Of a DNA stretch of 64,000 bases, positions 9,292 to 11,075 are shown one piece after another. Numbering within the stretch: position 1 is the stretch's first letter; every line of letters begins with the position of its first letter. The notes beneath the pieces were generated by a model that worked only from the letters and a program-made list of their open reading frames with translations, searched no databases and was not told where the DNA came from. The stretch lies in the UHGV virus genome UHGV-1351982, one strand, 5' to 3'. Source of the DNA: a virus. A program made the position numbers and the translations under genes.

Positions 9292-9330
9292 CCTTGACAT
9301 TTTCGCTGGGGTAGTGTAAAGTATATGTTA
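9292..9330 (+). promoter_or_regulatory. candidate plus-strand sigma70 promoter for the 9384-11019 island
   Basis: ttgaca, 17 nt, taaagt at the end of the 55-bp repeat unit, about 50 nt before the AGGAGG RBS. Confidence 0.35.
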
Positions 9331-9383
9331 TAGATGAGTGATCAAAGAGACACACATTTTCTATATACTAGGAGGTGTCAAAA

Positions 9384-10376
9384 ATGACAGAAGAAGCAAC
9401 TAAGAAACCTGAGACCGTCAGTGAAGTCGCAGCAGAACTGAGACGTCATGAGGAATCAGACAAACATAAGTGGGAGAAGGTCAAGGCCTACGAAAAGAAA
9501 CATCGTGATCACGATGATGACGATGAAGATGATGAAGATGACGACCATGAGGGCTGTCATAAACATAGGAAACATAAAATGCAAGAACCAGTAAACGTAT
9601 TCACTAGCGGCTTCCCAGGTCTGATGGGTGGTTACCCAGCAGTAGCAAATGGTGCTTTCGGTGGTGAAGGTATGGGTCTATTCGGAGCTATCCTGATTGG
9701 TGCTCTATTAACAGGCGGGTTCGGTGGTTTCGGTGGTTTCGGACGTGGTGCTGGTGTTGCCGCTGAGGGAACTGCTGTGGATGCTATCCTATCTAACCAG
9801 GATACTGCAAGTATTCTAGCTGCAATCAACACTGCTCGTACCGAAGCGAATCAAGGTACTGGTGCTGTTCTGAGCGCTGTTAATGGTGTAGGTGCTGCTC
9901 AAGCTTCTAGCACTCAACAGATTCTGACTACTGTGTATGGTACTGGTGCTAACCTGTCCAACCAGATCTGTCAGGAAACTCGTAACGTTATTCAGGGTCA
10001 GTTCGATCTTTCTCGCCAGATGGATCAAGCTTTCGCTGCTAACCAGATCGCTCGTGCACAAGACAAGTTTGACTCTGCTCAGATTGCTTTCCAGCAGTCT
10101 CTTCAGACCAACAACCAGTTTGCCGCTGTTCAGGCTCAGATGTGTGCTAACCAGAACGCTATCGAACGTCAGCTTGCTGAGTGCTGCTGTGAACTTCAGA
10201 CTGCGATCGCTGGTGTAACTACTGCGCGTATCCAGGACGAACTGAACGAATGCCGTCTGCGTGAAGCAATCGCTGCAGGTAGTGGTGCAAATGGTCAGGT
10301 AATCAACCAAATCGCTGTAAGCCTGGGTGCAATTACTCAGACTCTAGCAGCTCTACAGGCTAAAGTACCAGCCTAA
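9384..10376 (+). CDS. hypothetical membrane-associated protein: acidic/His-rich N-terminus, Gly-zipper hydrophobic segment, Ala/Gln-rich C-terminus
   Basis: AGGAGG RBS 8 nt before ATG; DDDDEDDEDDDHEGCHKHRKHK, then GLFGAILIGALLTGGFGGFGGFG; host-optimal codons (ggt, ctg, cgt). Confidence 0.6.
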   Translation: MTEEATKKPETVSEVAAELRRHEESDKHKWEKVKAYEKKHRDHDDDDEDDEDDDHEGCHKHRKHKMQEPVNVFTSGFPGLMGGYPAVANGAFGGEGMGLFGAILIGALLTGGFGGFGGFGRGAGVAAEGTAVDAILSNQDTASILAAINTARTEANQGTGAVLSAVNGVGAAQASSTQQILTTVYGTGANLSNQICQETRNVIQGQFDLSRQMDQAFAANQIARAQDKFDSAQIAFQQSLQTNNQFAAVQAQMCANQNAIERQLAECCCELQTAIAGVTTARIQDELNECRLREAIAAGSGANGQVINQIAVSLGAITQTLAALQAKVPA

Positions 10377-10398
10377 TCTTTAAGGGGAGGAGCCCATT

Positions 10399-10815
10399 AT
10401 GAGTAAATATGGTTTTGTGAACAACGGATTTAATCAACCAATGGGCTCCCAGCAGCCCATTCCGGGTCTGGATAACCCTTACCTACAACAGTTGCAACAG
10501 CGTTTAGCAGAAGCGCAACAGATGCAGCAACAACTCCAGCAAAACCCTGGAAGTGTGAGTCCTATGCAAATGATGCAGCAAATGAGCGGGCAGTCGCAAA
10601 TGCCTCAACAAATGCAGCAACAGGTGCCTCAGCAGCAAGTTCAGCAACAAACCCAACAACCGCAGGTTTCTGCGGAAGGACAGGCAGTACTAGCCCTTTT
10701 CGAAGACTTCGCAAAGACAGAGGATGGGAAACAGCTTGTATCACTTATGGGTAAGTTTAATAGCTTCTGCCAAAGCCAAGTTGCAAAAGCTCAAAATGGT
10801 GGTAATAACTCCTAA
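10399..10815 (+). CDS. hypothetical Gln-rich low-complexity protein (138 aa)
   Basis: GGGGAGG RBS; long Q-rich tracts (QQLQQRLAEAQQMQQQLQQ). Confidence 0.55.
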   Translation: MSKYGFVNNGFNQPMGSQQPIPGLDNPYLQQLQQRLAEAQQMQQQLQQNPGSVSPMQMMQQMSGQSQMPQQMQQQVPQQQVQQQTQQPQVSAEGQAVLALFEDFAKTEDGKQLVSLMGKFNSFCQSQVAKAQNGGNNS

Positions 10816-10824
10816 GGAGGAATT

Positions 10825-11019
10825 ATGTGTTGCAGAAAATCTGTTTCGTGCTGCCCAATGCCTGTAGCACGTTGTTGCTCTCCAGCAATGTTTACACAAA
10901 TACCGGTGTTCAATCCGTTTGCCTTTAAGCCTACTCTTATCCTGCCCCCTAGAGTAGATTTTCAGTCAAGATTGGTCTCCCGTATGGGTGGTTGCTGTAA
11001 CAAGAGAGTATGGTTCTAA
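10825..11019 (+). CDS. small Cys-rich hypothetical protein (64 aa)
   Basis: AGGAGG RBS; CC pairs (MCCRK, SCCP, RCCSP, GGCCNK). Confidence 0.45.
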   Translation: MCCRKSVSCCPMPVARCCSPAMFTQIPVFNPFAFKPTLILPPRVDFQSRLVSRMGGCCNKRVWF

Positions 11020-11030
11020 ACCAAAAAACA

Positions 11031-11066
11031 AAAGCCCCTGCCGAAAGGTAAGGGGCTTTTTCTTTT
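11031..11066 (+). terminator. rho-independent terminator ending the plus-strand island
   Basis: Hairpin agcccct ... aggggct followed by a T-run. Confidence 0.6.
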
Positions 11067-11075
11067 GCCTTAAAT

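Follow-up and report, generated by a model that had tools for sequence, protein, structure and literature searches.

The window analysed here is a stretch of 64,000 nucleotides (nt) of a viral genome (UHGV-1351982) and shares 99% identity with Escherichia phage PECP14 and Salmonella phage Sepoy, two Epseptimavirus members of the T5-like family Demerecviridae. In its early region, which is rich in transfer RNA (tRNA) genes, the neighbouring genes and all 18 tRNA genes lie on the minus strand, and three consecutive plus-strand genes form a cassette whose products we call P1, P2 and P3. We conclude that this cassette is very probably an autonomous, horizontally exchanged and selectively maintained accessory operon, moron-like in kind and orthologous to the genes T5.077, T5.078 and T5.079 of phage T5. 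The best overall explanation that we can offer joins this moron-like operon to a cytoplasmic, membrane-docked assembly of P1, P2 and P3. That fuller explanation is read from sequence and we put it forward tentatively.

The first-pass annotation of this DNA had described three consecutive plus-strand genes amid the minus-strand early region, with strong AGGAGG-type ribosome-binding sites and with a TTGACA-type promoter and a terminator of their own, and each of these features holds. P1 (330 amino acids (aa); 9384-10376, +) is the T5.077 orthologue and belongs to phrog_8119 (E-value (E) 1.4e-195). Its start is taken as the ATG at 9384, whereas the lister of open reading frames (ORFs) begins at the GTG at 9375. 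P2 (138 aa; 10399-10815, +) is the orthologue of T5.078 and belongs to phrog_7894 (E 1.3e-80), and P3 (64 aa; 10825-11019, +) is that of T5.079, as seen in an alignment of six copies plus a seventh. The identities to the T5 proteins are 77% for P1, 97% for P2 and 94% for P3. In the 5' leader (9323-9383, +), the Shine-Dalgarno sequence AGGAGG (9370-9375) stands 8 nt before the P1 ATG. The corresponding sites are GGAGGAG (10386-10392) for P2 and AAGGAGG (10814-10820) for P3, the latter overlapping the P2 stop codon. No Rfam family matched within the cassette, leader included. The G+C content is 0.488 for P1, 0.468 for P2 and 0.451 for P3, against 0.403 for the window.

The promoter (9276-9322, +) was predicted from the sequence by a consensus scan. 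It is of the sigma-70 type, matches 10 of 12 consensus positions and consists of an A/T-rich upstream block (9276-9289), the -35 box TTGACA (9294-9299), a 17-nt spacer and the -10 box TAAAGT (9317-9322). Promoter and upstream AATTTTTAAAGA block are kept in T5, in Sepoy and in two T5-like metagenomic contigs (L011 and L012); the P1 of these contigs is only about 42% identical and the promoter is nonetheless conserved there. The T5 record labels the equivalent element 'promoter P12'. Seven annotated T5 early promoters have the blocks TTGCTT, TATAATA and ATAAATT in common, and P12 shares none of these but has TTGACA and TAAAGT. The -10 block has no second copy within the window, hence no promoter class can be defined. 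Since the promoter is unlike its neighbours and its -10 block is unique in the window, these features fit a promoter that travels with the cassette. At the other end, the intrinsic terminator (11030-11066, +) is a hairpin, AAAAGCCCCUGCC-GAAA-GGUAAGGGGCUUUU, followed by a U run. It was missed by a simple scanner and detected by its folding energy (-21.4 kcal/mol, z = -3.98, for the hairpin at 11030-11060), and it is annotated in Sepoy and in T5, where the record gives an efficient bidirectional rho-independent terminator around T5.077/T5.078/T5.079. The T5 genes (phrog_8119, phrog_7894 and a singleton) agree with the cassette in gene order, promoter, terminator and position in the tRNA region. 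The flanks differ: in the place of the NadR and PnuC genes of this phage, T5 has T5.076, a primase-like anti-retron gene. T5.077-079 are annotated just as hypothetical, with no function.

The extent of the mobile unit is revealed by Salmonella phage S116, a member of the same genus. Its homology to the window extends to 9228 and is found again from 11053 on, and its SPFH and NadR genes are 272 bp apart with the cassette absent. Thus the promoter, the three genes and most of the terminator (9229-11052, +) together constitute one insertion or deletion. The empty site of S116 holds a 78-bp filler that has an exact 16-mer in common with the P3 coding region (window 10864-10879); this could be a deletion remnant or chance. 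P1 was found in 223 phage records and a D5 protein at least 90% identical in 436, so about half of the close T5 relatives have the cassette.

A synteny check, which had been proposed at first pass, finds the triplet in T5, in Sepoy and in three further divergent T5-like lineages; in each of these three it is again a plus-strand island among minus-strand genes. The same triplet occurs in the same order in the Pseudomonas siphophage KPP23 and in a 71-kb N4-like contig (L007) that encodes a virion RNA polymerase. Across these phage families the triplet, its gene order and the invariant residues are retained at 30-45% identity. A scan of IMG/VR returned T5-like phages only, and no T5-type P1 copy was found in one peptide-pattern scan of 185,579 bacterial and archaeal species genomes (one genome each). 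In KPP23, the deposited third gene, ORF072 (GTG, 6971-7165), is out of frame, and the conserved MCC peptide is encoded by an ATG ORF at 6969-7151. In the N4-like contig, the P3 homologue (9269-9418) overlaps the end of P2 and is uncalled as a gene. A stretch of about 1.9 kb upstream of the cassette in that contig (6100-7900) is also free of called genes and gives tRNA-like translations. The cassette there looks to adjoin apparent tRNA genes, as it adjoins confirmed tRNA genes in the T5-like phages.

All three genes are under purifying selection. The ratio of nonsynonymous to synonymous substitution rates (dN/dS) is 0.12-0.20 for P1 and 0.10-0.31 for P2 in comparisons with enough substitutions, and 0.15-0.55 for P3 where substitutions suffice (0.24 for L011 against L012). 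The synonymous rate (dS) differs along the cassette: in comparison with T5 it is 0.43 for P1 and 0.04-0.05 for P2 and P3, and in comparison with TrudiGerster it is 0.20 for P1 and 0.82 for P2. These unequal values point to a mosaic cassette with recombination breakpoints between P1 and P2. The low-complexity composition, and a P3 of just 64 aa for which a search of a 5.8-billion-protein index matched one cluster, might suggest chance ORFs or pseudogenes in a low-complexity stretch. We give this practically no credence. It is refuted by conservation, namely by dN/dS values well below 1 in all three genes, by the persistence of triplet, order and invariant residues at the identities given above, and by the conserved Shine-Dalgarno sites, promoter and terminator.

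The selected unit is nevertheless an accessory one. In a CRISPRi-ART knock-down screen of T5, each of T5.077, T5.078 and T5.079, listed there as unknown, was scored 'Not Fit' (PMC11879866 supplement), and by this screen the T5 orthologues are dispensable in the laboratory. Literature searches found the three genes in that supplementary table and in no main text. Injection and host takeover had been suggested as roles, and an essential role of this sort is unlikely because of the 'Not Fit' scores and the absence of the cassette from half of the close relatives. The organisation recalls that of the lambdoid morons, which likewise have their own promoter and terminator, are cleanly inserted between genes that are adjacent in a relative, deviate in G+C and are dispensable. 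The classical morons differ in being expressed from the prophage and in benefiting the lysogen, whereas the cassette is found in strictly virulent phages.

Two associations drawn at first pass do not survive. The adjacent SPFH gene had been regarded as part of the setting of the cassette. It occurs in 672 phage records against the 223 with P1. In S116 it is present and the cassette absent, and in the examined stretches of KPP23 and the N4-like contig the cassette is present and SPFH absent. In the RNA sequencing tables of phage Bas33 (PMC13250531), there is no gene at Bas33 68854-69131, where SPFH and the cassette would lie; from the gene tables alone, Bas33 seems to have neither. The second association, with an adjoining duplicated segment, was rejected as a functional link because the segment is an assembly artefact. 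Between 7930 and 9305 the window has 10 N (8586-8595) and a perfect direct repeat with a start-to-start distance of 720 nt (300 nt reported: 7930-8229 = 8650-8949). A 55-mer that includes the -35 box of the cassette promoter is present in three identical copies (8531, 8596 and 9251). A truncated second NadR copy (8534-9169) looks like two overlapping contig ends joined by a scaffolder; Sepoy and S116 have a single NadR.

P1 had been described as an acidic, His-rich protein with a Gly-zipper membrane segment, and the composition is as described. P1 has a net charge of -15, and its acidic/His-rich stretch lies at aa 42-66 (RDHDDDDEDDEDDDHEGCHKHRKHK; 9507-9581, +). This is the least conserved part of P1 (conservation 0.20-0.29): it is shorter and His-free in L011 and L012 and essentially missing in the N4-like homologue. 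Such a charge invites comparison with T7 Ocr, and the cassette could act as an anti-defence decoy, in which an abundant early acidic protein and its helpers would titrate an immune sensor or nuclease. The DHDDDDEDDEDDD run, a promoter type read by the unmodified host polymerase, the high-expression codons of P1, the accessory, patchy and horizontally mobile nature of the cassette and the anti-retron annotation of the neighbouring T5.076 in T5 are all in keeping with this. We consider it very improbable, since the acidic run is precisely what varies or disappears among homologues, since the conserved parts of P1 are a hydrophobic patch and a Cys-bearing C-terminus rather than an acidic surface, and since PADLOC gave no match and no anti-defence family was recognised.

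The codon usage of the cassette had been called host-optimal throughout. This is true of P1, with a frequency of optimal codons (Fop) of 0.70 (0.76 for aa 71-330) against a window mean of 0.51 (standard deviation 0.10), and not of P2 (0.45) or P3 (0.47). The high-Fop genes of the window are orthologues of the Bas33 genes with the most transcripts per million (PMC13250531, Dataset S01), so the Fop of P1 supports abundance. It is plausible, from its codons, that P1 is abundantly expressed; of the abundantly expressed, membrane-associated module proposed at first pass, this is the part that stands.

The membrane association fared less well. The segment concerned is a Gly-rich hydrophobic patch at aa 98-119 (GLFGAILIGALLTGGFGGFGGF; 9675-9740, +), defined by hydropathy and alignment. 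Its maximum Kyte-Doolittle hydropathy over 19 residues (KD19) is 1.72, and its Hessa sum is +1.56 kcal/mol, a marginal value, compared with -2.46 for the anchor of lambda Rz. The patch has no positively charged flank, and the P1 homologues have Hessa sums of +1 to +5. P1 matched no Pfam family at E <=0.1, Gly-zipper profiles included. The patch is conserved all the same (0.62-0.73), with G112, G115 and G117 invariant, and it marks the start of the region that is homologous to a wider family, phrog_16490. The most conserved part of P1 is its C-terminus, aa 256-330 (10149-10373, +), which comprises a CCC triplet (10182-10190) and a terminal helix, NGQVINQIAVSLGAITQTLAALQAKV. Conservation is 0.73-0.87 there among T5-type homologues, and C267-C269 are invariant in the T5-type alignment. 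AlphaFold2 predicted for P1 just the long helices 140-166 and 173-327, and no fold. The profile and structure checks suggested at first pass thus gave a family link to phrog_16490 on one side and low-confidence helices on the other.

The Gln-rich protein and the CC-rich mini-protein of the first-pass annotation are P2 and P3. P2 has 38 Gln in 138 aa (28%). Six divergent copies, when aligned, have a conserved N-terminal helix, a Gln/Pro-rich linker of varying length and an invariant C-terminal domain, LF..F..T.DGKQL....KF..FCQ, which holds the single Cys of P2, Cys124. A profile search of the PDB with P2 matched nothing, and a search of the protein index with its C-terminal domain was empty. 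In the records of Sepoy, STWB21, HMD-P2 and Seabear, the P2 orthologue is labelled 'cAMP-dependent protein kinase catalytic subunit'. The label was rejected, as a Pfam search found no kinase domain in P2, and it is presumably a spurious match from the Gln-rich composition. P3 is basic (net charge +8) and rich in Cys, Pro and aromatic residues, and its 8 Cys form four CC pairs. Its invariant features are the Met-Cys start (MCC or MCGCGC), the second CC pair, Phe23 and Pro42; an NPF motif is kept in most copies, and the last residue is aromatic in most. By the known specificity of methionine aminopeptidase, mature P3 should begin with Cys. Neither P2 nor P3 has a signal peptide or a hydrophobic stretch, and P3 has a KD19 maximum of 0.98 and no lipobox. 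Hence a complex of these proteins with the C-terminus of P1 should be cytoplasmic.

Motifs alone do not assign a function to the cassette, as had been anticipated. P1, P2 and P3 had no match in Pfam, NCBIfam or PADLOC (the last at E up to 0.1), PDB profile searches with the P1 family and P2 gave no significant match, and in PHROGs P1 and P2 fall into families of unknown function with P3 unmatched. The cassette proteins resemble no characterised system. Keratins and keratin-associated proteins, intermediate filaments and the GLFG/FG-nucleoporins offer an analogy in composition only. Like these, the cassette combines a helical rod flanked by Gly/aromatic low-complexity sequence, a Gln-rich partner and a small CC-pair protein (MCC or MCGCGC); there is no homology to the cassette proteins.

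This composition could be that of a filament, gel or condensate that is soluble in the cytoplasm and plays no part at the membrane, and which would sequester a component of the host or of a competitor, or organise an intracellular site. The GLFG/GGFG patch and long helices of P1 and the Gln-rich P2 would provide its bulk, and P3 would be the Cys-rich cross-linker. The patch has neither the length nor the hydrophobicity of a transmembrane helix and no positively charged flanks, and the sequences are of low complexity (the 28% Gln of P2, GGFGGFGGFG in P1 and GYGYGYG tails in the crAss-type relatives described below). A compact fold is not predicted for P1, its codon usage points to high expression, and P2 and P3 have no export signals. 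The likeness to such materials is compositional, however, and unsupported by homology, the conservation of the patch with its invariant glycines leads one to expect a specific packing or membrane interface, and coiled-coil periodicity was not found. We therefore judge a soluble condensate to be unlikely. Another reading, which we hold to be slightly more credible and still doubtful, is that P1, P2 and P3 form an unrecognised phage-made fibrous material, abundant, thiol-bridged (by metal or disulfide) and equipped with lineage-specific small partners. It might coat the envelope, form a cage or trap competitors, and would be unlike any known phage system.

The preferred reading, a membrane-docked assembly of P1, P2 and P3, has to be set beside what is known of the wider P1 family. 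An exhaustive profile search recovered 476 cluster representatives (50% identity) at E <=0.001, and 47 of 52 sampled relatives match phrog_16490, a family of unknown function. When a profile of the T5-type proteins alone was aligned with one of the crAss-type proteins alone (hhalign), the probability was 97.2% with E 3.1e-11 over 100 columns, corresponding to P1 aa 98-197. A single-sequence search also reaches crAss-type proteins, at E 6e-7 to 8e-5. Of 162 family members, 144 have the CCC triplet. A search of records of cultured and uncultured phages located the relatives in Suoliviridae (Crassvirales), in other Bacteroides phages and in assemblies of Bacteroidales and Prevotella; one cultured Bacteroides phage with phrog_16490 is C3_41T2LP. 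In two Suoliviridae contigs, late genes beside the P1-like gene (L032 6182-6748 and L009 10215-10781) have seven in-frame stops each under translation table 11, which fits the stop-codon recoding reported for those phages.

The two types share the Gly-rich hydrophobic patch, GGFGGFG, long helices, the CCC triplet and two small partner genes. They differ in that crAss-type proteins have no acidic N-terminal head, carry C.CCC directly after 'LSxQL', and add a KQPxTVxVxYP segment and a Gly/Tyr- or Gly/Cys-rich tail with an aromatic end. At the place that aligns with the crAss-type C.CCC, P1 has a single Cys (QICQE), and its own CCC follows about 70 residues later; P1 ends with ...LAALQAKVPA, just short of the crAss-type KQPxTVxVxYP segment and Gly/Tyr tail. 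Two conserved partners follow the crAss-type gene, and they do so too in a Paraprevotella assembly and in a Bacteroides phage outside the crAss group. One of them, the first, is beta-rich, of about 140 aa, and belongs to phrog_31654 where it matches; the second, of about 170-190 aa, belongs to phrog_28898 and partly matches a 'virion structural protein' PHROG. This makes the crAss-type genes a second three-gene module around the same core protein. Their partners are unrelated to P2 and P3, and they lie in late operons after lysis genes. The idea that P2 and P3 are split-off pieces of the crAss-type C-terminal tail was tried and dropped (hhalign E 0.45).

The relatives carry the labels 'spike protein/glycoprotein' or 'outer capsid protein/viral fiber', and the 'spike/fibre' label of the Crassvirales curators is based only on remote coiled-coil-type matches. 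Our family profile gave sub-threshold matches in the PDB to influenza HA2 residues 11-91 and to coronavirus S2 (E 0.02-0.2), which are probably the source of these labels. In P1, as in the class I fusion proteins, a long polar helix comes after a Gly-rich hydrophobic segment, and P1 98-103, GLFGAI, reads the same as the opening six residues of HA2. The E-values are not significant, however, and P1 lacks a signal peptide, a C-terminal anchor and a second heptad repeat. That its GLFGAI matches the beginning of the HA2 fusion peptide is most likely coincidental.

Crass-type relatives stand directly after endolysin, holin or LysB-like genes in cr4_1, cr52_1, cr1_1 and the Paraprevotella assembly. 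This location raises the prospect of an envelope-spanning or lysis-linked complex, with P1 anchored in the inner membrane, a periplasmic helix of about 155 residues and disulfide cross-links like those of the Rz spanin, which would help to disrupt the outer membrane, regulate the timing of lysis or block superinfection. At an estimated length of about 23 nm, the predicted helix 173-327 would come near the width of the periplasm. The conserved cysteines suit an oxidising compartment, and the sub-threshold fusion-protein matches cover a Gly-rich hydrophobic segment and the long helix after it. There is also a surface likeness to lambda Rz/Rz1, since a larger helical Cys protein precedes a tiny Pro/Cys protein, and in the N4-like contig the small gene overlaps the preceding one.

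We think this quite unlikely for the cassette. The T5-like phages and KPP23 already have canonical two-component spanins elsewhere (PMC4342426, PMC11664485, PMC6139136). In contrast to Rz/Rz1, the cassette has no N-terminal transmembrane domain, lipoprotein signal or lipobox and includes a third, Gln-rich protein; the patch of P1, a marginal one, begins at residue 98, and neither P2 nor P3 has a signal peptide. The cassette in the window does not adjoin a holin/endolysin/spanin cassette, and it is dispensable in T5. The more specific candidate, that the cassette is the canonical spanin of the phage, was rejected, as spanins are present elsewhere and the anchor and lipobox are missing.

In their late operons, the crAss-type relatives also lie just upstream of virion genes, and each relative comes with its two partners, of which phrog_28898 partly matches a virion structural family. 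P1, P2 and P3 could accordingly be an ejected 'cargo' or fibre set packaged in the virion, with P1 inserting into the host envelope by its fusion-peptide-like patch after ejection. The patch would then be exempt from the rules of Sec-dependent insertion, and its missing positively charged flank would be no obstacle. The 'spike/fibre' label of Crassvirales points the same way, albeit from remote matches only. To our knowledge, the virion proteins of T5 all come from the late region, which counts against a virion role. T5 virions have 16 proteins (count quoted in PMC8624392), and virion mass spectrometry of KPP23 identified nine proteins, none of them ORF072-074 (PMC4031330). The cassette, moreover, has its own sigma-70-type promoter, lies on the opposite strand in the tRNA/early region, and is dispensable and missing from half of the close relatives. 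A virion role is improbable on these grounds, a little more so than the envelope-spanning complex.

We return to the cytoplasmic, membrane-docked assembly, the reading that we tentatively favour. Its partner logic is based on the most conserved parts of the proteins, the C-terminus of P1 and the C-terminal domain of P2, together with the invariant residues of P3. In this scheme, host RNA polymerase would transcribe the unit once this DNA enters the cell. P1 would be made in large amounts and would self-associate. It would be elongated and all-helical, its acidic head disordered and its Gly-rich hydrophobic patch short. Through the patch it may attach to the inner membrane from the cytoplasmic side, either peripherally or partly inserted, with no classical transmembrane anchor. 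Its last 75 residues, with the CCC triplet, would recruit P2 and P3. P2 would bind through the invariant C-terminal domain that holds its single Cys, and P3, basic and CC-rich, would expose an N-terminal Cys after removal of the initiator Met. Thiols could make the contacts between the three proteins, either by binding metal ions or as disulfides. The stoichiometric assembly so formed would alter the envelope or the cell interior to the benefit of the phage in nature, for example by excluding competitors or by protecting against host responses.

Several observations weigh against this scheme. The patch is only marginally hydrophobic, and that of the N4-like P1 contains an Arg. The AlphaFold confidence for P1 is low, with a predicted local distance difference test score (pLDDT) of 48.7 from 18 aligned sequences and 51.6 from 144. 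No heptad periodicity was detected in P1 by a crude Fourier test (p ~0.2), so we refrain from describing it as a coiled coil. The cassette promoter departs from the T5 early-promoter consensus, so that expression may be early or late. Knock-down gave no phenotype, and nothing links the unit to exclusion or protection. Finally, phrog_16490 relatives occur in late operons beside endolysin, holin and virion genes, and lysis or virion roles are suggested by this for the wider family.

Some further features of the window lie near the cassette. At a distance of 3 kb, a cell-wall hydrolase (14231-14677, -) matches PHROG endolysin families (phrog_938). The main holin/endolysin/spanin cassette of T5-like phages lies elsewhere in the genome, according to the literature on the related phage OSYSP, and the hydrolase appears to be a second, accessory endolysin. 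The minus strand also carries tRNA-Arg(TCT) at 12319-12393. Another 500 nt beyond it, a borderline Rfam tRNA match (12919-12990, -; 29.3 bits against a threshold of 29) falls in an ORF-free stretch that is annotated in T5 as the stable 'RNAX'.

GenBank already lists the ORFs of the cassette, as hypothetical proteins, and the moron layout too is an established type of organisation. What is new is that genes of the T5.077-079 type are recognised as one mobile unit that crosses Demerecviridae, N4-like and KPP23-like phages, that their conserved cysteine signatures are defined, and that P1 is tied to a very large, unstudied family of gut phages. T5 is a classical model phage, yet T5.077-079 have been 'hypothetical' for twenty years, and the phrog_16490 relatives bear misleading 'spike' or 'fibre' labels in Crassvirales and in phages of gut Bacteroidota. 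Since the unit is dispensable and T5 is tractable, work in E. coli could open the whole family to functional study for the first time. Should the cysteine-marked assembly turn out to be an accessory structure of a new kind, or to serve exclusion or anti-defence, the finding would extend to abundant phages of the human gut.

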